62,985 nt of DNA, filler included, from Klebsormidium nitens (GCA_000708835.1; 7 parts of 7 records of this genome joined end to end with filler, not necessarily neighbours in it), one strand, 5' to 3'; shown: positions 23,901-62,985, numbered from the whole stretch's first letter. Program-made: numbers and translations. The notes: generated from the sequence alone by a model not told the origin.

Positions 23901-25669
23901 GAAACTTCAAACCCTAAACTGCTGGAGCACCAGAGAAACTAGGACAAACCCCCTGATCCTGCAGAAGATTGTCTCCTCCATGCAAAAATGCACAAACAAC
24001 CATTCAAAAGAAGACACTTTGTAGCTCGGAAAGCGAAGGGGATCTACGTGGTCGACCGGGCGTAGACAGACAAGTATTTCCTCTTCAGTGTTTCCGCCAG
24101 AGACGGCGGAACTGTGGCAACCCGTGTGGGACACGCAGCGTATAAAATCTGGCAAAGATGGTGCAAGGAAACCTTGTGGAGGGTGTCGAAGTAAGGCCGA
24201 GTGCGTCAAAACCACGGTGTGTGAGCCCAGCATCATGAAAGAGCAAACGCGGCAACCCTTTCTAGAGTCGGAGTCATGAGCTTGGAGCCTTTTCAGCTAG
24301 TCCACAGGGACGTTCGCAGCCCGATGCCGGTTGCCCAAATGAAAGCAACCCGTACTTTGCCACGTTTTTGGACGACTACAGCAAGCTCTTTGTCGTAATT
24401 CCCATGAAGCAAAAGGGCGAGGTGCCCAAGGTGACTGAGCACGTGATCAACCGATTTGAGTTGCAATCGGGGAAGAAGCTCAGATCGGTGCGGACGGATC
24501 GGGGGAAGGATTACGTCCTTTGCCCCTTAAGGACGCCTTCGGGGGCAAAGGGACGGAAGACGAGAAAACCGCCTCCCACACGGCCGAGCAAAACGGGACG
24601 GCAGAGCGACTCAATCAGCAGTTGGAGGAGAAGGTCAGAGCGATGCTCGAGGACTCAGGGTCAAAGAGTTGTGGGCGGAGGCCACAGTGACGGCCAACTA
24701 TACTCGGAATCGGACCCTTCTGAGCGCGCACGGGATGACCCCGTGGGAAGCGTCCTACGGCACGAAGCCGAAAGTGGGGCACATACGGATGTTGGGTCAA
24801 GGGCGATTGCGCACGTTCCAAAGCAACGGAGACGGAAGTTGGATCCGGTCAGCGAGCGAGGAGTGTTCGTGGGGTATGAGCCGGACTCCAAGGCGTACCG
24901 GGTGCTTCGGAAGTGACGAGAAGCTCATCATCCGCCGGGACGTCATTTTGACGAGGGAGCGAACGAAGAAGGGGTTGTCAAACTTAGCTCTGAACTCAAG
25001 GAGGATTCGCACACGGCGGAAAAAGATAGCGCACAAGATCTGGTAGTGGTCAAAAAGGGTTCCTATCGGATTTGGCGCGCATGAACCCTCTGAGCAAGTT
25101 AGCACGCCAAATCCAAGAACCAGCCAATTCGGAGCGGTTTCGGAACTTGAGCGCCAAGCTGAGGCAGAGCCGAAAGAGATGGATGTGGACCTAGGGACTC
25201 AACCACCGGCTGCCCAAAGGTACCCACCAGCGCTAGGCGGGCATCGGAGGAGTGGTACTGCTCCAACTTGGTGGCTTACACTAAAGCGGGGGAGCATTTC
25301 AAGGGGACGATTGAGCAACCAAAAGCCCCAGAGTGATCATGATGCCGTAGGGGAAAAAGAGAGTGACCTCTGACGGAAATCCATGGACAAGGAGATGCGT
25401 TCTTTGTTGGAGAAAGGGACGTGAGAGACTGTCAAAACACCGGAAGGGGTCAAGCCGGTTCCTATGAAGTGGGTTTACGAGATCAAGCGGGACACTCCCG
25501 GCAATGTGGAGCGGTACAAGTTCCGGCTGGTGGTGAAAGGCTACCTGCGGAAACAAAGGATTGATTGACTTCGACGAGGTCTACGCCCCGTGCGCAAGCA
25601 CACCCTGCGTTGCTGCTGGTGGTCACAGAGCGCCACTTGGAGCTGCATCGGCAGAACGTCTAAGAGAAG

Positions 25670-26040
25670 TGATAATGGGTTAGGCGGCCAAATTGTTGGT
25701 TTAGGCCGTGGTTACTAGTTAGTAAGCTAGGCTAGTAGAGCCGTACGATGTTAGGTTCTTACTTGATGTGAGCCGTTTGATGGGTTCTTTTGCTAGTAAA
25801 AGTGAGGCTTGAGCTAGACTATATGACTTGAGCTAATATGAAAAGAACCCGACTCATACTAAGAGATGCTCGTTGAGAAAAGAGCGCTTCCTTTGTGAAC
25901 GCGCTTGTGGAAAAGGGTGGTTAGACCCTAGGTTGTTGCAAGCACGTGTGTATGATTTAAACAGTGTTGAGTTTGATGCGCTACCACTTGGGCGACACTG
26001 GCGCCGGTGTAGTCCAAGTGGTAGCGCGTTAAACTTAACA
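25670..26040 (+). mobile_element. Solo-LTR-like insert inside copia element 1
   Basis: TGATAA...TTAACA termini, interrupts pol. Shares AGCTAGGCTAGT and GCGCTT..TGTGA..CGCTT motifs with the LTR at 31003-31506. No clean target-site duplication. Confidence 0.55.
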
Positions 26041-26232
26041 AAATGCGTAGACCGAAGCGGTCGAAGCACATTGACGTAATTCATGACTTTGCACTGGAGC
26101 GCATGGCACGCAAGGAGGTCGGAGGTCGGGTCCGCGTTCTGTAGGACGGAGGACTTGAAGGCGGACATTTTGACCTAGGTTGGGAAGTTCAAGAAGTGCA
26201 AGAGCGTGTCAAGTCATTGGTGGGGGGGAGAG

Positions 26233-26592
26233 TGTTGAGATCCAATAGCGTAGGCGCATGGTATCCAAGTCCCCATACTGGAGGTTTAGAAGCACAAATT
26301 GGAGATTGCAATTGTAAAACGTTAGCGGTTGATCGACGGTGATTTTTAGGTTGGGTCTCGACTTCTTACAGCCGAATGATATATTATGGTGACCGTCGAT
26401 ATAAAGTAGGTTCGATAGTAGCCGTCGATGTACGGTTCAGAGTGCAAATTTCGGACTTACATAGTGACGCTCTACTGAGCCTACTAGGCTAGTATTGTAG
26501 ACCTATAGATATTTCACGACTCAAAACACTCCGTATAAATTGTGTGAACTCGTTAGATTCAATATTATTTCCAACAACGCTGTGTTTCAACA
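26233..26592 (+). repeat. LTR (family B), 3' LTR of copia element 1
   Basis: Starts TGTTGAGA right after the PPT and ends GTTTCAACA. Homologous to 61019-61183 on the minus strand. Confidence 0.8.
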
Positions 26593-26745
26593 ACATTCAT
26601 CTTCGCAATCCGCTCCGCCCCTGGCGGGCCGCGACAAGGATATCGTCCAACCACACAATGAGGTAAACCTGCTCCCCGTCCATTACTCACGAAATGGCGC
26701 TGCGTCCGCCAAAGACGCCACGAACTCAAATTTCCCGAGCTCCTC

Positions 26746-27154
26746 TGTTGGACGCGCGCGCGCACGGCCGTGTTGGGAATTAATGATCGAATGATCAAGT
26801 TCACACAATACATATTGAGTGTTCGGAGTCTAGCGGCGCTAAAGCTATGCAGTCTGTGTGCTATGCTAGACTCACTCAAGTAGAGTCACACTCCTAGTCT
26901 AGGTCTCCACTGATAGCCTAGTAGGCTTAGTTGACCGCGGATAAGCAAGTCCGAAGATCTCGCGCAAGTCTGAATATCTACGGCTATCATCGAACCTACT
27001 CATTACGGCGGTTATCACAATAAGTCATTCGGGTGTAACGCTATAAACCGCGCGCATTTAATCGCCAACCGCTAATTAGTAATTACCGGTTATCGTCGAA
27101 CTCCCGTCGACGTCACCCAAGAGATTCCGCACACTAAATGCCCGAATCTCAAAA
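26746..27154 (-). repeat. LTR (family C, related to B), 3' LTR of copia element 2
   Basis: Follows PPT GTGGGGGGAG (27155-27164, minus strand); starts TTTTGAGATT and ends TCCAACA. Internal similarity to LTR B (TAGGTTCGAT..TAGCCGT.GAT, AGCCTACTAGGCTA, ATTGTGTGAACT). Confidence 0.7.
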
Positions 27155-30100
27155 CTCCCCCACACACTTACGACTTGCGCAATTCCTATCTCGCTCTTGC
27201 ACTTCTTGAACTTTCCCGGTACTAACGCCTTGGTCATGATGTCCGCCTTCATGTCCTCCGTCCCGCAGTACGCGAACGCGACCTCCTTGCGTGCCACACG
27301 CTCCCGTGCAAAGTGATGAATCACGTCAATGTGCTTCGACCGCTGTGAAGCAATCGGGTGCTTGAGGAGCCGTATTGCCCCTTGGTTGTCGCAGTAGATC
27401 AAGACCTCCTCAAAGTCCAACTCCAGGTCTCCCCCGACTTTGCGAAACCGCAGTGCCTTCTTCACCGCTTGCGATGCGCTCATGTACTCCGCCTCTACCG
27501 TCGAGGCCGCCACCGTTGGCTGCAGGCTACTCGACCAGCTTACCGCCCCCCCATACATCAGGAAAACGTACCCCGTGTGGACCGCTTTGTGTCCACGTCA
27601 CCCGCGTAATCCGCGTCGCAATAAGCGATAAGACTCTCTCCACTCCCCCCAAAGTTTACCCCGTCCTCTGCCGTACCCGCTAGGTAGCGCACAACTCCAA
27701 GAGCCGCCCGCCACTGCTCCTTCGTCGGCCCCGGCCCCGCCATAAAGCGCGCAAGCGCGCCCACTGCCTGTGCAATGTCGGGCCGAGTGCACACACTCAA
27801 GTACAACGGGCTCCCCACGCACTCACTATAGAGAAACCGCTTTGTGTCGAGGGGTTCACCTTCTTTGGTTAATTTGTCCCCCGTTCCGAGAGGACCGAGC
27901 GCGCCCGAGCACTCGCTAGTCCGTACCGTCCGACAAGCTCTCCCTTCAGCTTATTCTGTCTACCTTCAAGATGCGCGCCTCCCTATCGCGTGTCAGCTCC
28001 ATGCCGAGGAGGTATTTCGCCTCCCCCAGGTCGCGCACGTCGAACTTCTCCCCAAAATGCGCCTTTACTTTGCCAATGCGGTCCGCCCCCCGGGCCGCCA
28101 CTAGAATGTCGTCCACCCACACCACTAGGTAGACCCGCTCCCCGGCTACTATTTCCGTAAAGAGTGCCGCGTCCGCCGTTGACTCAAAGTTCCCGAGCTC
28201 CTCCTTCAGGCGCATGTGCCATGCACGCGGCGCCTGGCGCAAACCACAGGGTGCGCTTGACGTGGCAGACCATGTTGGGCCCGCCTTGCTCGTATCCTTG
28301 CGGCTGCTGCATGTAGATCTCCTCCTCCAGCTCCCCATTGAGGAACGCTATCTTGACGTCCAGCTGGTTGTAGCTCCAAGTCGCGCTCCGCAAGCAATGC
28401 ACGCAATGTGGTGTGCTTCCTCACCGGGGCGTAGACTTCCTCAAAGTCAATTCCCTGCTTCTGCAGGTACCTTTTCGCCACCAGCCGGGACTTCCAATGT
28501 ACCGCTCCACATTTCCGAGAGCGTCCCGCTTTATCTTGTAAACCCACTTCATGGGAACCGGCTTGACCCCTTCCGGTTTTTCGACGAGCTCCCAGGTCCC
28601 GTTCTCTAGCATAGACCGCATCTCCTCGTCCATTGAGTTCTGCCATAGTTCACTTTCTTCTCCTACGGCTTCTTGATAGGTTTGCAGTTCCGGTGCTCCC
28701 CCGTCCCTTTGGGGTGCTCCCCCGCCTTTGGTTCCGCCGCTAAGTTAGCGCGGTACCACTCCCCCGGTGCGCGTCTTTCGCGCGCGGGGTACCTCTGGGC
28801 AGCCGGTGTTTGCATCCCGAGATCCTCCTCAGTCTCTTTCGCTGTGCCTTGGTCTCGCGCACAGTTTCAAACTTGCCCTCATTTTGGCCCGTTTGTGAAA
28901 GCGCGCGCGTGGCCGCGTCGCCCTTGCGCAGAGATTCAACTTTTGGCCCCTCATGGGCCTCCGTGTGAACCTGTGCGCCGGACCCTCCGCCGTCTGGGAA
29001 CCGTCCGTGGGGTCGGAGCCAAGCTCAACAAGCCCATCTTCCCCGATCTGCTCGTCAAAGATGACGTCCCGGGAGATGATTAACTTCCCGTCATGGTCCT
29101 AGAGCAACCTGTACGCCTTCGAATCCGGCTCGTACCCACGAACACACATCGCTCGCTCACCGGATCTAGCTTACGCCTCCGCTGTTTGGGAACGTGGCGG
29201 AACGCTCGGGCCCCAAAAACCCTCATATGCCCGACATTCGGTTTTCACCGAAGAAAACTTCCCAGGGAGTCCTCCCATGGGCGCTTACGGGCGTTTGGTT
29301 CCGGGTGTAGTTGGCCGTCACCACGGCTTCCGCCCACAGTTCTTTGGCCAACCCCGAGTCCTCAAGCATTGCCTAGGTCTTCTCCTCCAGATCCCGATTA
29401 AGCCGTTCCGCCGACCCATTCTGCTCGGCGGTATAGGGGGCGGTTTTCTCGTGTACCGTCCCCTTGCCCCCGAAAACGTCTTCAAGGGCCTTGTTGACGT
29501 ACTTCTTGCCCCGGTCTGTCCGCACCGACTTAAGCTGCTTTCTCGATTGCAACTCCAACCGGTTAATCACGTGCTCGGTGACCTTGGCCACCTCGCTCTT
29601 TTGCTTCATGGGGACTACAACCGAGAGTTTGCTGTAGTCGTCCAGGAACATGGCAAAGTACCGGCTTCCCCCTATAGAGGCTACCGGCATTGGCCCGCAG
29701 ACGTCCATATGGACTAGCTCAAGAGGTTCCGTGCTCACTGGGTCGGATTCCGGGAAGGGGAGCCTAGTTTGCTTCCCATAATGCAGGGCTCACACACCGA
29801 AATTATAGGCGCTCTAAACGCACTCGGTTTCACCCCGACCCCTTCTACGAGGTCGCGCTGCACCATTTTCGCCAAGGTTTTGTACCCGGCGTGCCCCAAC
29901 CGTTGGTGCCACAACTCCGCCGTTTCCGGCTTCTTCACAAGGAAAGACGTGCCCCTCTCAGCCCCTTTACTACATAAACCCCCTCTGCTTTCCGAGCGAC
30001 AAGGACTACCTCCCGGTCAACCTCAAGCTCACGGTTGCCGTTTTCTTTGAACAGCACTGACGCAACCTCGGTGGCCTTGCTCACCGAGATCAAACTTGCC

Positions 30101-31002
30101 GCCACCCCCGGGACATATATCACGTTCTGCAGAGTGACTAGACTTTCTCCGGTCGCTGTCGCATACCGCAACTCTACCAAGCCGCTCCCTCTGCCGATAG
30201 GGTTCCCTTGTTCCCGAACGTGAATTCTCGGCCACTCCCCTCAAACATTTCGAGGGTCTCAAATAGGCTCTTGTCCCCGGTTAGGTGTTGGGAGCTACCC
30301 GAATCGACGAGCCACTCGTCGGTCGACACTCCCTCAATGACGCTGAAAGCCACACCCTTGGGAGGTTTCCCCCCTTTCTTCAGCTCCGGCTTGTGCTCCC
30401 GCCTATCCGGCTTGCTGCACTTCCGAGCAATGTGAACAAACTCCCCGCAATTATAGGTCTTGGGCCCTTTGCCCCGGCTCTTATCCTTGCCGTGGACCTT
30501 CTCCTTCCCTTTCCGCCTGGCCACATAGGCCACTCCGGAGTCCGACTCACCGCCGCCCTTCTCTTTGGGCGACTTCTCAAATCCCTGCTCATGAACCAAG
30601 AGCTTCGGCAGAACCGCATCCACCGAGCTAATGGCGCTTTCCGAAGCCTCTAGGATTGTTCTCAGGGTACTGAACGTCTTGGGCAAATCCCGCAAGCACG
30701 CTCCATGCCAACTCATCCGGCTTTATCTCAAAACCGGTGGCGACCAAGTCCCTATACAAGTCCTTTGCCCGACCCACATACATGGTCACGGGCTCACCCG
30801 ACTTCATCTTGAGAGAATGCAGCTCTTGCCTGAGTTGCATCTTCTTTGCATTGGTTTTGCTCTTGTAAGTCTTCTCAAGGAGATCCCACGCCTCCTTTGC
30901 GGTTTTGCACTCCTCAATCGACCCCAAATGGTGGTCCTCAACGTTTAGCCCGATGATGGACAACGCTTTCTTTGATTGAGCAGGGTGCGGCGCTACGGGA
31001 TT
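27155..31002 (-). mobile_element. Ty1/copia element 2 internal region (gag fragment, protease, integrase, RT, RNase H), frameshifted
   Basis: gag TAKEAWDLLEKTYKSK..LRQELHSLKM; protease WLVDSGSSQHLT; ETAELWHQRLGH; integrase LVHMDVCGP..FLDDYSK..RTDRGKKY..EQNGSAERLNR; RT KWVYKIKRD..LDVKIAFLNGELEEEIYMQQP..VWVDDILV; RNH CDADYAGDVDTKRST..STVEAEY..SKHIDVIHHF. Confidence 0.95.
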
Positions 31003-31506
31003 TGTTGAAACTCATGGTAGGGAGTCGTATAGTATAGTTGAGGTACTCGTCATCGGGTCTTATCCTGTCGCCCGGCACCCATGCTCATCACTCATTGATG
31101 GCAACCATGCATCCTAAGAGGAACACACGAAGCGCCTCACAAGCGGCTTCCTTCTCTCCACAAACTTCTCTTAGAATGATGTATCACATTGATGGTTTCC
31201 ACCACCATATGTCTTACGGGTCTCTCCCGTTCGACTCGGCTCACTAGCCTACTAGGCTCACTAGCCTAAGTCACACACTACTAAGCTCACTAGCCTAGCT
31301 CACAGTCACACTCAATCTTAGCCTTCGATATACTCATCTACGGCTAACACTGACGGCCGCTCTCAATCGCCTAACCTCCAAACCGCCTAACGGTTAAACC
31401 GTCCAACCGCCGTACACGCACGTGGGCGTTCACTAGTCTAAATCTCAACTCGAGCCGAACTCTAACACACAGTAATTCGGCTGACTATAATCACCGAATC
31501 TTAACA
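31003..31506 (-). repeat. LTR (family A), 3' LTR of the Gag-protease-only element, abutting the gag of element 2
   Basis: TGTTAA...TTCAACA, 504 bp, preceded by PPT GAGTGGGAG (31507-31515). Closely similar to 61184-61655. Confidence 0.85.
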
Positions 31507-32647
31507 CTCCCACTCAGACGAATTACGTTAAGCCTCTAACTCGTCATGCTCCTTTTGCGGGCTGTCTTCTTCGCCTTTGGCTCCCGCGGCTTCCGTTGCT
31601 GCTCCCACATTTGCCCGATACCACTCTTCGGGCTCCCGTCGCACTCTCGCGGAATATTTCCCAACTCCTGGGACTCCACTGCAGGCTTTTCCTTTGCCTG
31701 TTCCACATCGGCGGACTTGCTCTCTACCGCCGTCTCTGGGCTCTCCTGCCCTTTCCGATCTCCTCGGACTCCTCCACAACTTCGCGCATCGTTTCCACAA
31801 TCAGCCCACTTTGGCCTTTTTTTGAACTGTGCCCGCGACACGGCCGCGGTCCGTCGCGGGCGCGTGCGCGTCCCCCTCGCGCGCCGTTTCAAACTTCGCC
31901 CCTTTTTCGACCATTTTTGGATTTGTGCGCGGCCCTTCGTCCTCCCCCGCAGAAGTTCCCCTCTCTCGTTCGACGCCCCCATCCTCGTCGTTCGACTCGT
32001 CTAGGTCGACCTCCACGACCTTCACCGTCTTTTTCACCACGCGTTCCGCTCTTACCGGCCTCTTTGCCGTGGCGCACACCCGATTCCCCTTGACCAAACC
32101 CCTCGCAATGTCCCACGGTCTCAATGTCCCATAGCCTCCACGTTTGACTGCCTCCATACGGACCACGCCGTCCGTCTCGATCTGCGCGGTTCTCCCCTCG
32201 AGCACCACTCGTGCTCCCGCGTCGGTCGCCCTTGTCAGAGCGAACAAATTCACCTGTGCCCTCGGAGCGTGCCGGACCTCCCTCAAGGTTACCGTACTCA
32301 CACCGCTCGGGGTCTTACACTTAAGCTTTACTTCTCCAATGCCCATTGCAATCAAAGACTCACCACAGATCCCCACGATCTTCTCGTCACGCACAAGCTC
32401 TCTGTAGCTCGTGAACTGGCTCCGATCGGCCGTGACATGCTGGGTGCTGCCCTAGTCGACAATCCACACCCCTTTGCGCACATCCCCGTCAACCCACGCC
32501 GAAAGGCTACTCCGTTTGCATCCCCCGCAAACTCTCTCTCCTCTGCGCGGCCACTTGCGCGCGCACTCTGCCTACACACTACCTCTGTGTGGCCCTCTTG
32601 CCGCACTTGCGGCACTCCGCATCGCGCAATCTGCACTCTGCCTTCAT
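31003..32647 (-). mobile_element. Non-autonomous copia derivative: Zn knuckle and protease, then a charged tail, PPT and LTR, with no integrase, RT or RNH
   Basis: Decayed CCHC knuckle (..CG..GH....C), WIVD*GSTQHVT, MGIGEVKLKC..VTLREVRHAPRAQVNLFAL. Only about 0.6 kb of K/E/R-rich frames before the PPT. The 5' end is lost in the gap. Confidence 0.75.
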
Positions 32648-41905: not shown

Positions 41906-43084
41906 GTTCCTTGAACTTCAATGGGACCCTCCCTACAAAATCTCTCATCTTAGGGTCTAACCTGGTTGCCAACCCTGGAGCTGCCATCACCTGCAGCTTT
42001 AGCAACTGAGCCATGTGCTTGACTCCGAGCATGCCTCGCGGATCGTACTCTACTTGCCACCCCTCGTAAATGCGCGCCCGCTTCTCGGTAACCGGATCCA
42101 CCGACGTTTCCCGGCCCGCCTGGGAGAGCGAAATTCGAAGCCCCATCTTCTTGAAGATGTGGTTCAAAGCGTGCGTTACCGCTTTCCGGTCCCTGACGTC
42201 GACCAATGTGCGCTTAGCTCGAGTATCGAACAGATGTACACAACTGTCGTACTCTTTGAAATACTTCGTAACCAGGAGCTTCGGTGCCAATGTCTCGAGA
42301 GGTTCTGAGATGTGCTCATGGTCGAGCGGATGTGCCAGACCAAGCGTGGAGAGTATCTCTCTTGTGATGTGGACCTCGACTGGTCGATAGCTAGCCCTTC
42401 CTATATCCGTGATGTCCCACTGATGGAAACGATCAATCACTTGCAGCAGAAATGTGAGAGACTCTAGGGGCTTTGCACCATACACGTCAAGGAACTCCTC
42501 GCTAAGGCGACGGATCGTGTAGAAGCGGAGAAGTTTGAACCTGTCCATCTTTGCAACATCACCGTCCTGATGCGTCCGCTTCTGAAGCAACCGCTCAATT
42601 CGTTGAAATTCTTGGCTCGAGATGTCGGTTGCTTCGAGCAACCGTTGCTTCGAGCAACCGTTGCTTCAGAAAGCCCGTCGGACGCGTCTCCACCTGCGTG
42701 CCATCGCCAACCTTCTCGGTCTTGTCAAATCGCAGCTGTAACAATCCTCTCACGATATGACCCTCGCTCTTGAGCAACTCCGTGAACACTTCATAGAAGT
42801 GTGATTGACCGTTGATGGTTTCAGCGTCATTGTGCGCGAGTAACTTTGCAATTGGATCTTCAGGTGGGACGTACTCGAGTAGACCCCCCTCTCCCCTCTG
42901 CGTGACTCGGGAATACAACGCCCTGCCTCGTCGCTGGCCCAACGATTGAATTGGTAGACCTCCTCTACGCTTTTCCGTCGAGTGCTGGTTACCCGCTTGT
43001 GTCCCATACCAGTCAGAAACTTGAAAGGGGGCTCAGGAGTCTCTGTAGAAAACGTATGATCAAGGTCATGGCTCAATTGAAGCA
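41906..43084 (-). pseudogene. C-terminal exon of the helicase, two frameshifts, runs into the gap
   Basis: CTCTTAG|TG LQLSH..; shift at a G run near 42885; KLLAHNDAE..F; 16-bp duplication at 42629-42660; LLEATDIS..LGLAHPLD..ALNHIFKKMGLRI. Confidence 0.75.
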
Positions 43085-43235
43085 CTAAGAGGACGCAGCT
43101 CGAGACATCGTTCTCAGACCCCTAGAAGTCTCACTATGCATGTATCCAAAGCCCGCAGAAGCCAGGCGATTAGTCTCGGAGCGAAATCCGGGCAGCTCGA
43201 GCTCGAGTTCAAAAGCGGATGCAAGACCACACGGG

Positions 43236-43885
43236 GCTTGTCCAGCTTTTGCAGAATTAAGGCATATATAATTGTGCAAAATGTGGACAGACGGGTGTCG
43301 TTCATTTAGGGCTAGATTTTGCTAGTAAAAAAAGCATCCTCGTTGAGTCACCTGAGCCTCCAGTTGTCTCAGTGAAGCCCGTTGTCTGTACGACGGTGCT
43401 GTCAGCATGACCGTCAACAGGTTGCGTCACAATGGAGCAAGGGCAAGAAATTCGTTGTTGGTCGGCCTCATCTGCACGGTGCATTGCCCGGGGTAAGATT
43501 TAACTCCAACACAATGATTTGTTGTTTACGTTTTGCAAATAAAAAGGCATACTCAACACAGAGCTTGTCTAGGTTCTGCAAGATCAAATGCATAAGCAGA
43601 GACCTGGTGCCGGATGCCAACGTCCAGCTTTTGCAGAATCAATGCATATATGATTGTGCAGAACGTGGACAGCTCTCGCGTCGTATGCCAACGTCCAGTT
43701 TTTGCAGAACGTGGACAGCTCTGGTGCCGAATGCCAACATCACGTGGCTTGTCCAGCTTTTGCAGAATCAAGGCATATATGATTGTTGCAATTCGTGGAC
43801 AGCTCTGGCACCGGATGCCAACCTCACATGACTTGTCCAGCTTTTGCAGAAACAAGGCTATACAAAATTGCAAAACCTGGACACC
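43236..43885. repeat. Intronic palindromic module copies (TGTCCAGCTTTTGCA..AAGGCATATA..TGCAGAACGTGGACA)
   Basis: One copy at 43236-43290 and about five full or collapsed copies at 43560-43885. Confidence 0.85.
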
Positions 43886-44325
43886 TCTAGTGCACTGGAA
43901 CGAGCAAGCATCCCTGTTCGTTCTCTAATAAGCTCATTGGCTACAATACAAAATACCTTTTTGGCAGACTTTCCCATGGAAGCCGAAACAAAGCTTGCAA
44001 TGCTAGCAGTGTCCACTCCGCTGCATGCTCTAGTGTTGGCCATGGGTGCTCCTGTGACAATGCAATCGGATTAGAGGTGAATGAAGCTTGGAAATTCGAT
44101 ATTGTGTTAAGTATACTGGGTCTTCGACCTTTCGAAAGGATTCGAGATGATCGTTTTTGTTGAAAGGCTCAGATCGCAATGGAGGCAGTATAGACTTGCG
44201 AGATCTACCATTCACGTTGCAAAAAGTATCCAGCAAGTGTTAGCCATCCGAAAATAATTAGACACTGGGCTGCAAACAATATTCAATAGGCTTCAGTAAC
44301 ATCTAAGATCTGGTTGGAACCGTAC

Positions 44326-45371
44326 CTGCGGAGTCCTGGCCGTTGGTTGTCACTGTGCACCTGGAGGGGGCCTCCTCCACAGGCAGAGTAATACCTTGCT
44401 GCACAAAGCACAGGACTGAGGGGTTTCCGAGCTTGCGGACGCGGCTCTTCATTTGGTCCAGACCCCTTGGCGTAGTGCTTCCCTTGCATATGTAGATGAA
44501 TGCCCGGGCAAACCAGGGTCTGTTGAAGTCGACCGCAGGCTCGACGGTAGGGCTCAGCATGACTAGGCGCTTCGTCCATTGCTCGTTCACCTGCTCGAGA
44601 CCCTTCTTCACCGGACCGCATGAGTCCCGCGTGATTCTTAAGATTTCGGCCCCGGACAGCACCTTCCGGACAGCACGACTCTCTCCAACAAATCGACCTC
44701 GTTCGAGGACATCGAGTACACGATGCAGTTCTTTCCTTTCCGTAGCGATTCGAGCAACGTATTCTGCCAATACTCATGCCCTTCCTTCCTGTTGACGAAC
44801 ACAAATTCCAGCGGCCTTTGCGGGAGAGATCCGTTGATCACTACAGGTCCGCACTTGATCCCGTTCATCGTGAAAAAGTCGAAGGTCCGTTGGCCCAGAT
44901 GACCATCGAGCGCAATGACTTTCGTTGCTCGCAGCAAAATCTCCACCAGCAGATTGACAGTAGAGTGCCTGCCAGTGTTTCGAAAGGTCGAAGCAGACAG
45001 GTGGAAGAGAATGGACTCGATCTCATCGAAAATGACCAGATCGAAAGGCTCGAAAAACCTCCCCGCTGCAACGAGGCCCGGCAAGCTGTCGAACTGGCAG
45101 ATGACGTCCGGATGGCGTTTGCGGTCCGTAAGAGCCTCCACGAAATGCCCCTGCTCGTTGAAGCGGCCCGGCGTGCTCTTCAGATCGTTGTAACTAGTGG
45201 GAGTACTCCGGATTCTTCCTCTGAGCGTCGCTTGCTTGAGTCTGCCGGTATGTCACCATAAGCTTTGTCTTCGGCCTGGGCTCCTCGGAGGAAAGCTGCC
45301 TGACCATGGTGGATTTGCCGGTGTCCATGGGGCTGCGGATGAGTAGAGCTTGGAAGTCTCCACCTTGAAAC
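44326..45371 (-). pseudogene. SF2 UL9-like helicase core exon, two frameshifts
   Basis: TTTTTGCAG|G FQGG..IRSPMDTGKST..DEIES..QMKSRVR..DSA G|GTACGG; 4-bp insertion near 45193 and 14-bp duplication at 44652-44676. Confidence 0.85.
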
Positions 45372-45843
45372 CTGCAAAAACGAAATGTCCGCAGAAGATC
45401 CAAGAAAGAGTCCAAGCTTTTGGGAATGTGACACTTTGTCTATGTTCTGCAAGAGTAGTTAATACATATGAATGTATGCAAAAGCCAGACGGAGCTGAAG
45501 AGCTATGATATGCATTGCGTCTCAGTGATTGCATTGCATCGATACGTTGAACCGCAACACAAGCTTTAGAAGATGCACGAGGGGCAAGCTGTTATGCAAT
45601 CTGCTTTGCAATCGAAACAGACCTTGGAAGCTCGGAAAAATTTAGGCGATCAGCTTTGTCTATGTTCTGCAGATTTCTAGCATATCCGGATATTGAACCA
45701 AATGAGGTGACAACAAAAAATCATGACATTAACTCGCTGAATTTAAGTCGTTTGCTTCCAGCATGCTCGATTCGAAAGTGTAACAGGCTTTACTTGGTCT
45801 CAAGAACTTCGAAGAGAGACGTAAGCCAAACACCGCCACTTAC

Positions 45844-46379
45844 TTGTTGACCTGGCTGTTGAAGACAATGGTGTTCGTCATTTGCTTGACCCCAGCTTGG
45901 ATCAAGTGCAGGTCCGTTGGACCCGCGACTAGAGGATCCCTGCTCAGATATCGCATGTTGATTTCCACGGCTCCCGCTTTCCAAGTTTCCGCATCCGCGT
46001 ACAGGAGCCCTAAGTAGTGGGCAGCCTGTTCTTTGCACGTCAGCCCGGTTGCGGGGTCGACTCTCTCGCTCGAGCACTTGGCAAAGACCGCGTTTTCTTG
46101 CTCGTTCACGATGCAAAGGATGTCGCGCTGCCCGGAATGTATGTGCCCCGCATAGCATGGCTCACCATCCCGATCCGTCCAGCTGAAATTGAGCTGGTTG
46201 CTCAAGCCTCGCTTGAAAGCGGTCGGGTGCAGACCTTGCAAAAGCTTGAGGCAGCGCTGGGTGTTGTATGCGTTGGCAAAGTGGGGATTGAGGTAGGCCA
46301 TGTCCGCTGACTTTTTGAGAAGTCTGCACTCCTTGACAGCGTCGGGCGCAATGATTGGAACCCGGATGAAAACAACCTG
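45844..46379 (-). CDS. Zn-finger/linker exon of the primase-helicase
   Basis: TTTTGCAG| QVVFIRVP..DGEPCYAGHIH..FAKCSSERVD..QVN AA|GTAAGT. Confidence 0.75.
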
Positions 46380-46438
46380 CTGCAAAACCGTATATAGCAT
46401 TAGAAACCCTGGCTGGGATTGCTCTGTGACCACATGGC

Positions 46439-47025
46439 TTGTCTAGATTTTGCGGAGTCATAGGCATATACAAGACGTACAGAACCTGGACACTCTGGCA
46501 CTGGATGCCGATCTCGTCCAGGTTTTGCAGATTGAAGGCATATACAAACATACAGAACCTGGACAGCTCCAGTGCGAAGGACACCTTTAGTGCGGAGCTG
46601 ACGTGTCTAGCTTTTGCAGAAGCTGGACGCTCTGGCACCGGATGCAGATTTAGTCCAGGTTTTGCAGATCAAAGGCATACACAAATCGCGCAGGATGTGG
46701 ACAGCTCCAGTGCGAATCGTGCAGAACCTGGACAACTCTAGTGCAGAGGACGCTCGTACACTGACGTGTCTAGCTTTGCAGAACCTGACACTCTGGCATC
46801 GGATGCCAACCCTGTCCAGGTTTTGCAGATTGAAGGCATATACAAACGCGCAGAATCTGGACACCTCGAGGGACGATCGTACCCTAATGTGTTCAGGTTT
46901 TGCAGATTGAAGGCATATACAAAACGTGCAGAACCTGGACACCCCTGGTGCCGGAAGCGAACCGCACGGCCCTTGTCTAGCTTTTGCAGAATCAAGGCTT
47001 ATACAAAGCGTGCAGAATCTGGACA
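46439..47025. repeat. Intronic array of ~52-bp palindromic modules separated by 22-38 bp spacers
   Basis: About 8 copies, 2 of them collapsed. Consensus TGTCCAGGTTTTGCA-GATTGAAGGCATATACAAACG-TGCAGAACCTGGACA, with 15-bp inverted arms. Confidence 0.9.
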
Positions 47026-47139
47026 GGATCTGTAAACGACAAAGCAGCCCGGTAGACAACAGCCGTAATGTGCTACAATTCAGTCATGCGTGTTAAGTTG
47101 TCGTCGGTGTTGTTCCATGAAGACTCTTGATAATCTTAC

Positions 47140-48018
47140 ATCGTCCAGCCAAGTGATGACTGAGTCGGCAATAGGTTTGTGCGGGTCCAGAGGCAGCAAC
47201 GGACACTGAGGGGCGGATGGTTTGGAACACCAAGGCAATCTGATGCCCCAATTCTGGGTGTACACACCCTGGTCAATCAGCTCCGCCAAGTGTGGCGGGA
47301 GGACTTCAGCAAGCCTGCGTGCGAGCTGCCCTGCTCCTTGCGGATCCACTGTGTGTGCAAGATTTGAGCGGAAGACCAGCTGCGGGGTGTGCGTCGAAAT
47401 GATGAGATGCAAGCTGAACTTGCCGCCCGGGCCGTAGTCGCAGGGAACCCAGTTGAAGGCCCCCTCGACAAGCTTCACGTCGTAGTCCTCCGCAAACACC
47501 CGCATAATTGCGTCCTGAAATTGTGCAATGACGCTTTCCAGAGTCTCTCCCTCCGGCAGACCGCCATCTCCGTCCATGTCCAGGTATGGTTTGCACGGCC
47601 TCCCCTCTACCAAAACTTCCTCTCCATGAGGCTGCGTCCGAAAATATTCAATTGCCGTGGGCCAATCCGGGTAGGAGCCGAAACTCCTGTACCCTCTACC
47701 CTCAGACAGGTGACGGATCTCAACCTTGTGATCCAGCAGAGCAGCAAAGCGCTTGCTGAACCCCTGTGGCCCGTTCTTGGAGTCTTTGCAGCTAAGCCCG
47801 GAGATGCTGGACATCTTTGAGAAAAAAAAGGTGCCCAGCATCATCTGGCGGACGGTCTGAACGGTGCCGTTCTCAACGGTCTCACTATGGACAATCGTGC
47901 TGTTGGGAGGGAGAGGTCGAATGGGTTGCTCGCTGCTGGGGACACTTGAGGTGGGGTTCTCGTGATTGGAAGGATTTGCAGGGGCAGCTGCCGTCTTGTC
48001 GGGCAGCAACGTGGAAGG
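47140..48018 (-). CDS. AEP primase exon of the primase-helicase
   Basis: GATGTAG| ...RSFGSYPDW..EVLVEGRPCKPYLDMD..KFSLH..IDQGVY..WLDD |GTAAGA; uninterrupted frame. Confidence 0.85.
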
Positions 48019-48382
48019 CTACATCAAGAAAAGAGAAGCGCACAAGCTTTAGATATGTGCCAGTGAATCGACGTCACGAATGATATTTAGATATCTTTGC
48101 ACCGAATCGGTTTCAGACATTGAGATGCAAGCTCGACATCTCCTGGCATCTGCTTTCTTCCGACATACATTGATAAGCGGCAAGATAGGCAAAGCGTCAC
48201 ACTTGATCATTGGTGAAATGCTGTGGTTTGCTGCACGGAAAGATGCTGGCCAGTTTGGAACAATAAACCAGCATGAGGAACTGAGTAAGTAAGGACCTGA
48301 CTCTGTCACAGTTAGTACGTTTGACAAGAATTTTCTCAAGCTGTTTCGTCTGAACTCTCAGAGTGTAGAACTCGGCGCATCC

Positions 48383-49336
48383 TTAGTGGTACATGATGAG
48401 GATCAGTACAAAATGGCCTTGTGTCTGCTGTGCAGCGAGCAATCTGCATTCCTGCGATTGTCTACGAAGGATAGTCAGAGAAGTCGGCATTTTTTGCGTC
48501 CCTGGTGCTGAGCCTACCTCTGCATCAGCATCAAGATCGGCAGCTTTCCGTAGGGTTCCCTCAGTTTTGCGCGCTGTTTTCTTTTGTGCAAGCTCTGCAG
48601 TGTCGCTGCCCTCGTCATCGTTGCGGGACGCAAAAATTCGTCTGGCCTTCAAGCAATTCGGCCGCGTCAATCTGCACAAGTCGACAAGTGGATCAAAATC
48701 TGCGTGGCTAAAGGCGGGATCGATGTTCGCTTCAAGGCAACTTAAAAACAAGGTCCAACTGATTGCATTGCTGAAGTATCTCGGACTGTTGATGCCTAGC
48801 TTTCACATGAAAGGCGACAGCAATTTGAAAACAATTTGCAAGATAATCACGTGATTCAATCGATTGACTGCGCGGGGCAATTCCTCCGTTGTCGTGTGCG
48901 GTCAACACAATGTATCGGGCCGGATGCAGCGGCGGCAGAATGCTGCCAACAAAGGATATATTCTGTCACTGTTGAGCATGTGCCATGCGCGGTCAGTTGC
49001 ACGATGCTTTCAATCAGTGCTGAGCTACTACAATTCAACAAGAATATGCTGGAAAAAATGTTTAGACTGACCTGTTCATCCCTTGCATTGTCAAGCGCAG
49101 CGTAGAACATTGTGGACTGCCAACAATCGTCTGAGTCACCGTCATCGAGGTCGGAAGTCCGCAAGAGAGGTAGCAGAGTCGCTGCCATCCACCGACCTGT
49201 CGTACTCGACCCCCTCCAAGCTTTCGCCATCATTCGCCTCTGATGCGCTATCTGGCTCTGACTCGATGTTCCGGTCTACAATTGCTTCCAATGACTCCGA
49301 GTCCGAGCCCAAGTTGCGGTCTAGACTGGTCGCCAT
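48383..49336 (-). other. Probable upstream (5') exons of the primase-helicase gene, acidic low complexity
   Basis: MATSLDRNLGSDSES.. (49336), ..DEQ|GTCAGT donor, and TTTTTAAG| acceptor at 48741/48740. Phase to the AEP exon not resolved. Confidence 0.3.
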
Positions 49337-49664
49337 GGTTGGGTTGGTTGCTGCTTGGGCGGGCGAGCCGGCTTCTATTGAAAGCTATGGCCCTGAGCAC
49401 ACTGTCGCTGTATTTAGAATCGGGCTTTTGCTCGCAAGTCTGCGCTGGTCGGCGCGTCACTAGGCCCGGAGTCCGGAGTAGGCGGCCTGCTGCTTGTTGT
49501 GAGGGTATGGAAGCTGGAAATGAAGATTTGCGACTCGAAATTCGGAATTTATAGGGTGCAGTCTGCCGCCCGGTCAGGACTTTGTCGACTCCCGAAGGCC
49601 TGAGAAGCGTCCACGTATCGTAAGAACGTCCACGTGTCGCAATAAGACGATTGTACTTACCGAA

Positions 49665-49757
49665 CTCTCACCAGGATATAATACGTAAGTTAACGTGCGG
49701 GCAGGTTTTTGGCGGGATTTCTTGGCCCTCTCACCAGAATATAATACGTAATTCAAC
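49665..49757 (+). repeat. Direct repeat CTCTCACCAG(G/A)ATATAATACGTAA(G/T)T x2, spacing 63 bp, next to a gap
   Basis: Copies start at about 49665 and 49728. Confidence 0.8.
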
Positions 49758-52260
49758 GAGGGGCCGGACTTGTCCCTCCANNNNNNNNNNNNNNNNNNNN
49801 NNNNNNNNNNNNNNNNNNNNNNNNTTAATTAATTAANNNNNNNNNNNNNNNNNNNNNNNNNNNNNNNNNNNNNNNNNNNNTTTGGAAGTTGAAGGTAGTG
49901 CAGGACTGCTTTACACCTTGGAGCAGCATATAGTGAAGTTCTCACGACAGTCAGATGTGTGCAGTAGCTTTCAAGCGTGCCTGCATTGAGCAGAGTGCTG
50001 GAGCTTTCTGGTTCTGGGGTGGACGCCGTGGTTCGCACCTCAGTCAGAGGGCTTTCATATATCAGAGCAACATTCTTTTGACATAAAACCTGTGCAATTG
50101 CATTTGCGCATGCCTGCAATCTGGCAGAGTGCTGGAGCTTTCTGGTGAATGGTGGATGCAGTGTTTCACACCACCCCTCCAGTATGCCGGTGCCTGTTTG
50201 GAGCATGTCCCTCTGCTTCTCGGGTTGTTTCACCTGTCAGGCCAGAATGAGATCACACCATCCCGGAGCTAGGTGGTTGGTATGGAAGTTGATCATCACA
50301 GCCTCTGATTGCAACAAGGCATTGCTCGACGAGTTTAGGTCAGTCTTGGTGTTCTCGCAACAAGTTGCATTTGAAGGTCTTGTCAGGGTGGAAAAGAGGA
50401 TGTTCAACGTCATCAGTTAAATTATGTTGCAAGCTTTATGCCAGCATTTTTCTATTGCTTGGGCTGGGGCAAGCTTGAATGCTTGCTCACCTGAGATTCA
50501 CCAAGAATTGCAACCACAATAATCATGACAAATGGACAGGAACACTCTGTCAGGATGGCTGCTGCATATCCAGGAAGTTCGTGTATATCTGAGTATGCCA
50601 TCGCTGTCAATCGTCAAGGCAGACACTCCAAAGTATCTGAGTTGCCTGAGACTCTCGTCTGTCATTCTTTAAACAGATCAGAAAGGAACCAGAGGCGCCC
50701 TGTGAGGATCTGGGGCCTAGACTGCTGCCTGCTGCTCCTCTTCAAAGATTATGATGGTCGGCAGACCCTGCCAAATCGCACAGCATGGGGAAGGCTGGCA
50801 GCCATTTTTGTGTGAACATGCATCCGCTAACCCCCTTCTCTCCTTGTCCCAGCTGCTGCAAGAGGGGGAGGGACCGAGGGCGCGGGCGCTTCAGGGGACG
50901 TTGAAATGCCGGATGTTGACTATGGGAGAGGTGAGTGTCCTTGCCTGGGGCGTCAGTCTTGGAAATGCAGGGCTGGTATGTGCGGTTGCTGAAGCGTCTG
51001 CTCAGCTATTCAGTTTTCAAGTGTACCTTCTTCTTCTGAGCATCAATATGCCCTTTCCCTCATCAGTCGGCAATTTTTCTGATCGCTTTCAAGGACGTTG
51101 ACTGTTTGTTTATGGGCTGGCAGATTTGCACAAGGTAAACTTGCGCCTGGCAGACTTGCCCGCCCAACATGAGCTGTATCATTGGATTGTATGCTGATCC
51201 TACTTTTGGTTTGGCTGTTTCAAAAGCATGCTCATAAGCCTTGGGGAAATAAGCTCTCGGGACCTGTTGCTGCTCACAATTTTGAAGCACCCTTTGCAGG
51301 ATATATGGGCTTTCTTAAGAGCCAGTTGCATTTGGAAGCCTCTGTAGGTATCTAATAGGTTTTGCACTGCAGACATCCATCTGAACCTGTAATGAGAGCA
51401 GGGACCTTGGTCCTCTCGAGCAACTCTTAATCCGCTGTCAGAACATTATTAAGCTTATTGAGCTTAATTGCCTGGCATGACCAAATTCTGCACCAGGTGG
51501 CGTCCAGAAATTTAAAGCAAAGGGATGTTAGGCAGTGCAGCTGCCGTTGACAAAAGCAGCATGGAGAGCGAGCTCCGGAACTCTGCCTGATCTACTCCCC
51601 TTTCTGGTGCAGCTGCTGGAACGAGGCAGACTGGTGCAGCTGCAGGCCCGTCCCAAGACACGATCATGCATGACACAACGCGGGGAGAATACAGACGTGA
51701 GTTGTGCTAAGCAAGTCTTCTGGCTCATTTGCAGTGTGGCTGTGCTATCTATTTGCCTCTCGCCTGTTGCCCTTGCGATTCAGCTGGTGACATGGGTGCC
51801 ACAAGTTTCTCTCTAGATATTTTCAGGGAGACTGCTCGCTTCAAAAAAGAATTGAAGGCACTGCGGAGATAAGAAGCCTTTTTTTCTCTTGACCCCTGCC
51901 AGCTCAGGTCTGCTTGCGTCCTTGGGCGACACATCAAACAGGGTCCACAAATNNNNNNNNNNNNNNNNNNNNNNNNNNNNNNNNNNNNNNNNNNNNTTAA
52001 TTAATTAANNNNNNNNNNNNNNNNNNNNNNNNNNNNNNNNNNNNNNNNNNNNGTCGTGAAATTTAGATTTTAGCGTCCGCTCGAAGACGATCGCCTCATC
52101 GCCGTCGCAAATGGTGGAGTACACCTTGCCGTTATCGCTGGTGATCTCCACCATTGGCATCTCCTTGGAGTGCGCCGTTGGATTGCGGGGCAACTCGGAG
52201 TCCGAATGCGTCCTCGATGGCGAGGCACCACCGGTACGAGCTCCGCCATGTTCTCCGGAT

Positions 52261-61018: not shown

Positions 61019-61690
61019 TGTTGAAACACAGCGTTGTTGAAAGAGATATTGAATCAGTCAAGTACCGAATTGTATAGGGTGTTTCAAGTCATGGCCTATC
61101 TCAAAAACTACTTTACTAGCCTACTGTAGTAGGCTCAGGGGAGCGTCACTATGTAAGTCCAAAATTTTACTCTATACTGTTTATATTGAAACTCACGGTA
61201 GAGAGTCGTAGTGTCGTTGAGTTACTCGTCCTCGGGTCTTATCGTGTTGCCCGGCGCCCATGCTCATCACTCATTGATGGCAGCCATGCATCTTAAGAGG
61301 AACACACGGAGCGCCTCACAAGCGGCTTCCTTCTCTCCACAAATTTCTCTTAGAATGATGTATCACAATAGCGTTTGTCACCACTATTGTCTCACGGGTC
61401 TCTCCCGACCCACTAGGCTGACTAGCCTACTAGACTTACTAGCCTAGCTCACTGTCACCCTCAATCCTAGCCCTCGATATCCTCATCTACGGCTTACACT
61501 GACGGCCGCTCTCAACCGCCTAACCTCCAAACCGCCTAACGGATTAACCGTCTAACCGCCGTGCACGCACGGCGGCGCTCACTAGTCCAAACCCTACACG
61601 GGTCGAACCCTAATCACATAGTAATTCGGCTGACCATAATCACGGAATTCTAACACTTTATCAACGGCAATTATTGAACCTATATGCACA
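61019..61690 (-). repeat. Family B LTR remnant of copia element 3, split by a solo LTR
   Basis: 61019-61183 and 61656-61690 align collinearly with LTR 26233-26592 (TAGGTTC.ATA.T.GCCGT.GAT | ..AAATTT.GGACTTACATAGTGACGCTC..ACGCTGTGTTTCAACA). Confidence 0.75.
61184..61655 (-). mobile_element. Solo LTR (family A) with near-perfect 5-bp target-site duplication
   Basis: TGTTAG...TTCAATA; flanks GTTTA (61179-61183) and CTTTA (61656-61660); homologous to 31003-31506. Confidence 0.8.
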
Positions 61691-62985
61691 TCTTGAAATT
61701 CCCTGGTGCCAACGCCTTGGTCATGATGTCCGCCTTCACGTCCTCCGTTTTGCAATACGCGAACGCGACCTTCTTGCGTGCCACACGCTCCCATGCAAAG
61801 TGATGAATTTCGTCAAAGTGCTTCGACCGGTATGAAGCAATTGGGTGCTTGAGGAGCCGTATTGCCCCTTGGTAGTCGCAGTAGATCTGGACCGTCCCGA
61901 GGTCCAACTCAAGATCTTCCCCAAGCTTGCAGAACCACAACGCCTCCTTCACCGCTTTCGCTGCTCTCATGTTTTCCGCCTCGAGGCCGCCACCGTTGGC
62001 TGCAGCCTGCTCGACCAGCTCACCGCCCCCCCATATATCCGGAAGCGTATCCCGTTGTGGACCGCTTCGTGTCCACGTCACCCGCGTAATCGCGTTGCAA
62101 TAAGCGATCAGAGTCTCTCCGCTCCCCCGAAAGGTTACCCCGTCATTCGATATACCCGCTAGGTAGCGCACAACTCGAAGCGCCGCCCGCCAATGCTCCT
62201 CCGTCAGCCCCGCCATATGGCGCGCAAGCGCGCCCAATGCTTGTGCAATGTCGGGCCGAGTGCACACACTCATGTGCAACAGGCTCCCCACGCACTTACT
62301 GGAGGGAAACCGCTTTGTGTCGAGGCGTTCACCCTCTTTGGTTAATCTGTTCCCCATTCCGGAAGGGACCGAGCGCGCCCAAGCGCTCGCTAGTCCGTAT
62401 CGTCCGACAAGCTCTCCCGTCAGCTTTTTTTGCGTTGGCTTCAAGGGTGCGCGCCTCCCTATCGCGCGTCAGCTCCATCCCGAGGGAGTACTTTGCCTCC
62501 CCCAAGTCGCGCACATCGAACTTCTCTCCCAATGCGCCTTTACTTTGGCAAACTCAAAATCTCGAGCTCCTCCTTCAGGCGCACGTGCCATGCACGCGGC
62601 GCCTGGTGCAAATCGTACAGGGTGCGCTTGAGGTGGCAGACCATGTTGGCCCGCCTTGCTTGTAACCTTGTGGCTGCTGCATGTGGATCTCCTCCTTCAG
62701 CTCCCCATTGAGGATTGCCGTCTTGACGTCTAGCTGGTGCAGCTCGAAGTCGCGCTCCGCGACCACCACCAATAATGCACGCAATGTGGTGTGCTTGCTC
62801 ACCAGGGCGAAGACTTCCTCGAAGTCGATTCCCTGCTTTTGCAGGTACTCTTTCGGCAACAACCGGGACTTGTACCGCTCCACATTTCCCAGAGCGTCCC
62901 GCTTTATTTTGTAAATCCACGTCATGGGAACCCCCTTCCGGTTTTTCGCCGAGCTCCCAGGTCCCGTTCTCCAACAAAGACCGCA
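61680..62985 (-). mobile_element. Ty1/copia element 3 RT-RNase H, decayed, runs off the window
   Basis: WIYKIKRDALGNVERYKSRL..QGIDFEEVF..HQLDVKTAILNGELKEEIHMQQP; VCTRPDIAQA; YCDYQGAI..SKHFDEIHHF..KADIMTKAL. Internal deletion; PPT missing. Confidence 0.92.

Follow-up and report, generated by a model that had tools for sequence, protein, structure and literature searches.

A decayed primase-helicase gene of Klebsormidium nitens has relatives in large DNA elements, likely moved by a KDZ-type transposase

What is a virus-type primase-helicase gene, split by introns and broken by frameshifts, doing in the genome of the alga Klebsormidium nitens? The window that we analysed (62,985 nt in all, filler included; seven parts of records of GCA_000708835.1 joined end to end) carries such a gene. 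The original prediction, made from the sequence, saw in it a virus-type replication module that had become part of a nucleus-adapted mobile replicon, either a self-replicating transposon or an endogenised virus. We arrived at the following reading, to which we assign a probability of about 0.6: this is a decayed AEP-UL9 gene, with relatives in large DNA elements, for whose movement a KDZ-type transposase is likely responsible, and which a captured viral module likely amplifies outside the chromosome.

Structure and decay of the gene

Positions 41906-49780 of the window are the whole of a single 7.9-kb contig (G000:C491, further referred to as C491), with the gene on the minus strand. GT-AG junctions of compatible phase are at 48518/48018, 47140/46379, 45844/45371 and 44326/43042; the original count of four exons rises to six, as there are two short exons at the 5′-end. 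Exon 1 (49072-49336; ATG at 49336, donor at 49071) codes for an acidic leader and exon 2 (48518-48671) for a basic linker. They are followed by the AEP/PrimPol catalytic domain in exon 3 (47140-48018; motifs YLDMD, SLH and D..VY..N...R..W.SK), a Cys/His-rich domain in exon 4 (45844-46379) that is conserved in metagenomic relatives and probably binds zinc, a UL9-type SF2 helicase in exon 5 (44326-45371) and a C-terminal region in exon 6 (41906-43042), where the reading frame, still open, reaches the contig edge at 41906. Repeat units of ∼50-110 nt, specific to the subfamily, are present in intron 3 (46380-47139) and recur in intron 5 (43043-44325); both introns are absent from the paralogue C1511, which aligns continuously over their sites. 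Upstream of the ATG, the left subterminal region (49337-49780) has a 36-nt direct repeat (49665 and 49728). The public gene model P0014 has identical junctions around exons 3 and 4, uses an earlier donor in exon 1 (49196) and stops at a frameshift.

The helicase exon matches Pfam Herpes_ori_bp with E-value 5e-5 (22 bits, cut-off 20), and its relatives do so with E-values down to 2e-18 and up to 66 bits. The primase exon of C491 taken alone had no Pfam match; however, a profile built from 35 family sequences and compared with PDB found human PrimPol (E-value 3e-15) as well as UL9 (E-value 1e-35), the latter match spanning the helicase core. The AEP primase, the Cys/His segment and the full UL9-family helicase were all correctly recognised in the original reading.

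So were the several frameshifts: in comparison with sister copies, C491 has four frameshifting indels, two in exon 5 (near 45190 and 44667) and two in exon 6 (near 42909 and 42628). In primase motif III, a Trp replaces the Arg that is conserved across the family. Given the four frameshifts, the C491 copy is best seen as dead. Elsewhere in the window, apart from this gene, there are frames at 24266-32646 and 61683-62468, which resemble Ty1/copia integrase, protease and RNase H.

Copies, selection and transcripts

A single-copy orthologue, or the lack of any AEP or UL9 profile match, had been named in advance as results that would speak against a mobile replicon; neither occurred. The search for further copies produced 39 genome matches for the helicase exon and 42 for the primase exon, together on 38 contigs (about 40 copies), all these counts being lower bounds. 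A more divergent third group of replicases is also present (C1675, C1489). In a quick primase tree (no bootstrap; matches of 120-160 residues or more) the genome's copies form two clades with support 100 and 99; C491 is in clade I, together with C1804, C1102, C906, C1511 and C1427. The tree gives the two replicase clades no firm joint placement, so we name no donor.

The dN/dS ratios were 0.11-0.21 for the primase (14 of 14 pairs; 0.11-0.19 for exon 3 of C491 against its sisters), 0.16-0.17 for the helicase (both pairs) and, for the recombinase described below, 0.06-0.13 in four of five pairs, the fifth being saturated. As judged by these ratios, the AEP-UL9 family is under purifying selection.

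Splicing was seen in the paralogue C1804, whose CT..AC joints appear in three putative RNA runs, each of a different study, and are absent from the contigs of a DNA run. The four 5′ joints were present in all three of the putative RNA runs; the joint equivalent to intron 4 of C491 was present in two of the three and in none of the DNA-run contigs. The ‘RNA’ status of these runs is a software guess, and relatives of C1804 are the source of most of the matching contigs. At positions 1-1336 of C1804, its recombinase end, the putative RNA runs gave no cover. For C491 itself, one such run gave 15 partial contigs, none of them 95% alike, and is uninformative on the expression of this copy. Very deep putative RNA contigs, coming from some relative of C1804, were also observed over the replicase (L292:2005-6346). 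Over positions 41906-49780 of the window, all bins are covered by contigs of run X6 that have a strong C>T/G>A excess, which might indicate a bisulfite library over methylated DNA.

Related sequences are found elsewhere as well: JGI proteins match at 57-65%, and a run labelled as a different organism covers 29 of 30 bins of the C491 stretch. An Atlas look-alike cluster in which Mucoromycota predominate (0.94) suggests that the replicase family extends beyond this alga.

Neighbours of the gene

Gene neighbourhoods were mapped for 25 AEP-UL9 copies. The order of genes is replicase, tyrosine recombinase, a second primase-SF3 helicase and a convergent KDZ-type gene. The recombinase gene (∼350 aa) was downstream on the same contig in 17 of the 25 copies, and next after it comes the second replicase, with a PrimPol part and a D5/DUF5906 helicase. 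The KDZ-type gene, downstream and convergent, was found for 10 copies; for 12 of the remaining 15 the contig stops first, while C1414, C1134 and C1217 have space for it and none in the stretch inspected.

The recombinase profile had no match among PDB sequences, and its identity came from a fold search instead: the model (pLDDT 86.5) was matched by Foldseek to Cre with probability 1.0 and TM 0.57, and the catalytic residues R-K-R-Y are retained. Its best structural matches are proteins of algal giant viruses. It is also homologous to proteins on IMG/VR virophage contigs that carry a UL9-type helicase too; Sputnik-type capsids were present at three of the five such loci scanned.

The transposase-like genes fall into two lineages, KDZ-A and KDZ-B. 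KDZ-B comes just below the Pfam cut-offs both for KDZ (E-value 1e-5, 25.8 bits versus 26.6) and for CxC4 (E-value 7.5e-6). KDZ-A is linked to the KDZ-B core by tblastn (E-value 3e-7); the top ten of its Atlas neighbours belong throughout to the KDZ clan, with scores of 0.87 or less, and four of eight sequences have a weak CxC4 match. KDZ-A had no match to Pfam KDZ, three clear KDZ copies went unmatched by a KDZ-A profile, and AlphaFold gave no usable model (pLDDT 36). Apart from these elements, the genome has five clear matches to KDZ transposases (G000:C1331, C1524, C935, C1310 and C989).

Several other genes travel along. Between the exons of KDZ-A, on the opposite strand, there is a conserved gene of ∼310 aa (L070:9211-10000; L049/L077, i.e. 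C1102:29211-30143 and C906:2903-3694) with no Pfam match, reminiscent of the C-terminal domain of XPA. The left arm carries variable cargo, with frames of STAND/AAA NTPases and of fungal-type kinases (L287:5775-6377, L055:3356-4354, L297:2833-3717), and HIRAN genes are recurrent beside the helicase. Upstream of the sister copy C1121 is a piggyBac-like transposase gene (L032:6000-8201; PF13843, E-value 3.5e-52) inserted in the left arm of this sister element; we considered it as the mobiliser and rejected it, since a single copy has it, and since it begins at TTAA and is located internal to the left end.

Element ends and target-site duplications

Elements with KDZ-A genes are bounded by CAGTTGGCGCG on the left and by CGCGCCGCCCC on the right; just inside these termini is an inverted repeat, imperfect and ∼26 bp long. 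A search with the pattern of ends gave 57 matches, its control none. Comparison of the flanks (33 left, 26 distinct right) revealed 11 pairs with exact direct repeats of 8-9 bp abutting the ends; in the 38 controls with slid flanks, there was at most 1 pair. Five of the 11 pairs span an AEP-UL9 gene. The pairs connect separate contigs by inference and give element sizes of 26-35 kb: 32.6 kb for C1804 with C1660 (the recombinase gene is at both contig ends), ∼34 kb for C1216 with C1361, and 26 kb or more for C1616 with C985. Ends on the same contig share a duplication only in the 5.1-kb element of C1642; the left and right ends present together on C1809, C1102 and C1675 share none, which calls for an explanation by misjoins, nesting or recombination. 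On C1675 a right end abuts a left end with zero spacer (L290, C1675:151312-151322); this direct join, at C1675:151317, may represent a circle junction or else an element inserted into the end of another, and, as a single case, it was excluded from support. In C1102 the repeat arrays are inverted between the two arms. An earlier reading of the gene as a telomere-linked helicase was dropped after the ends with duplications were found.

Many elements have no AEP-UL9 gene, or have an alternative replicase in its slot, indicating that this gene is dispensable for jumping.

The window's gene belongs with the KDZ-B elements, an assignment made through its sisters because the C491 contig stops before any neighbour. 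Its 92% sister C397 has the recombinase and a primase-helicase downstream, and related recombinase copies continue into KDZ-B. Elements of this subfamily have sharp ends of their own, of the same design as in KDZ-A (CAACTAACCA... on the left and ...GTTGGTGCCCCC on the right); by homology to C1026, the left end of the C491 element (CAACTAAC...) is predicted ∼130 bp past the end of the contig. The flank alignment proposed originally thus yielded duplications for KDZ-A and, in a partial sample (8 left ends, 6 distinct right ones), none for KDZ-B. The leader encoded by exon 1 of C491 is found in C482, C1447 and C1600 as well, but there it stands before another gene, of PrimPol-D5 type and rich in introns; hence, the slot accepts alternative replicases.

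Duplications of 8-9 bp with random sequence speak for a DDE enzyme and against a recombinase. Variable duplications of this size suggest KDZ-type integration; Zisupton and Dileera are described as having 8 bp duplications (PMC12730594).

One could imagine that the copies are a domesticated host gene family that spread passively by duplication; host-like introns and one spliced subfamily seen in putative RNA runs would fit. We consider this highly improbable, as the copies share element ends with different flanks and target-site duplications, many of them are broken, and their position relative to the transposase and recombinase genes is fixed.

Virus hallmark genes

Searches of the whole genome gave eight matches to NCLDV capsids and seven to A32, all outside the element contigs: the overlap with the 38 replicase contigs and the 89 recombinase contigs was zero. 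The giant-virus major capsid genes are on G000:C1136, C1594, C1111, C794, C1004, C1101 and C1257, and six of the seven A32-like matches are on further contigs. No linked NCLDV core genes were present in the elements. Twelve proteins of virophage-type contigs had no match in 21 element regions, and ATG frames of at least 300 aa in eight element stretches all coincided with known genes, on the same strand or the opposite one. Among the ORFs scanned in element regions, none had a Pfam match to a protein-primed PolB or a retroviral-type integrase. Capsid, penton and packaging ATPase went undetected in the elements with a profile set that included no PLV-specific capsid and with PF21915 applied to less than the whole genome; a very divergent or heavily spliced capsid may be inside. 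The original remark that the window has no capsid, PolB or integrase gene holds for the stretch, but only because the contig ends there.

Viral contigs scanned with a single protein yielded no relative, and a profile scan found distant relatives only (22-36% identity). The nearest relatives found were metagenomic AEP-UL9 fusions and virophage helicases, not proteins of herpesviruses or ASFV.

The elements could also be endogenous virophages or Polinton-like viruses (PLVs), integrated by the recombinase, with divergent capsids that we missed and with KDZ transposons as recurrent neighbours. The virophage contigs combining the same recombinase with a UL9-type helicase would agree with this, as would the element size and the end module of recombinase and primase-helicase, which fit PLVs (10.1101/2023.10.16.562556). 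We nevertheless regard it as improbable in view of the capsid and A32 searches, the unmatched virophage-type proteins, the fully accounted long frames and the duplications typical for a DDE enzyme. Between the two originally offered alternatives, the transposon is favoured over the endogenised virus, by the ends, the 8-9 bp duplications, the KDZ-type transposase and the lack of any capsid or packaging-ATPase match. The nucleus-adapted mobile element with a virus-type replicase is supported by multiple copies and introns; its self-replication we infer.

Comparison with known systems

The algal elements resemble the KDZ transposons Zisupton, Dileera and Kyakuja in having a putative SWIM/CxC4/KDZ-type protein and short inverted ends. 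They differ in size (26-35 kb), in duplications of either 8 or 9 bp, in the outermost 5-7 bases being unequal between the two ends, in transposases below Pfam's cut-off, and in cargo (a viral replication module in place of TET/JBP). Tlr1 elements and transpovirons are likewise capsid-less and have virus-type helicase genes, but theirs is an SF1 helicase fusion; neither is known to have a KDZ transposase or an AEP-UL9 fusion. The algal protein matches both herpesvirus UL9 and human PrimPol by profile and, unlike them, fuses the two through a Cys/His linker.

With virophages and PLVs the elements share a homologous recombinase beside a UL9-type or SF3 primase-helicase near an end (10.1101/2023.10.16.562556). 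They differ by having no detected capsid, penton or packaging ATPase; they have, in addition, introns of the spliceosomal type, a second replicase, target-site duplications and a transposase of DDE type. As a fusion of a transposase with viral genes, the closest precedent is Teratorn, the piggyBac-herpesvirus fusion of fish, also a DDE transposon joined to viral replication genes. According to PMC6431247, Teratorn retains a whole herpesvirus with DNA polymerase, capsid and packaging genes, whereas the algal elements have only a small replication module and a KDZ-type transposase. In the literature searched (listings and opening parts of abstracts, outside subscription papers and repeat databases) we found no description of these elements; the parts are known, and their combination was not found there.

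A possible mode of propagation

A viral replicase, target-site duplications and no detectable capsid together make it likely that the elements not only jump but also replicate their DNA themselves. The sustained selection on two replicases and the recombinase argues that these genes served the element, and their simplest role would be amplification of the excised DNA. The KDZ-type transposase would cut at the short inverted ends and insert the element through a staggered cut. Once the DNA is excised, the UL9-type helicase would open it at element-specific repeat arrays; those in the arms of C1102 and in introns 3 and 5 of C491 are candidate origins, which the helicase may bind. The AEP would then prime the opened DNA, extension being left to a host polymerase or to the polymerase activity of PrimPol. 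The dimers that result would be resolved by the recombinase, which would thus have no part in integration; dimer resolution is a role proposed for such end modules in 10.1101/2023.10.16.562556. Extrachromosomal amplification of this kind is what the gene content predicts.

The module may have a different use in the KDZ transposons: they might behave as transpoviron-like satellite replicons that work during giant-virus infection only, or the module might help in repair and fork restart at a very large element. Giant-virus capsid and A32 genes on other contigs of the genome, a recombinase structurally closest to algal giant-virus proteins, and replicases that are interchangeable behind one leader are in line with such uses. 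We think them unlikely, since for one subfamily spliced transcripts are present in putative RNA runs of an ordinary kind, from three studies, and since the spliceosomal introns imply nuclear transcription.

Returning to amplification of the excised element, one could speculate further, and at less than even odds, that a new class of self-amplifying transposons is present here: a KDZ cut-and-paste chassis with a permanently captured virophage-type replicon and swappable primase-helicases behind a spliced leader, propagating as free nuclear DNA without PolB or capsid. If so, small DNA viruses and transposons would have in these elements a living intermediate, one that had kept the viral replication module, lost the capsid, gained introns and come to use a DDE transposase. 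They would offer 30-kb cut-and-paste elements a route to gain in copy number, would provide a little-studied group of transposases with defined ends, and would make it possible to test, in an alga related to land plants, how genes of viruses turn into genes of the nucleus.
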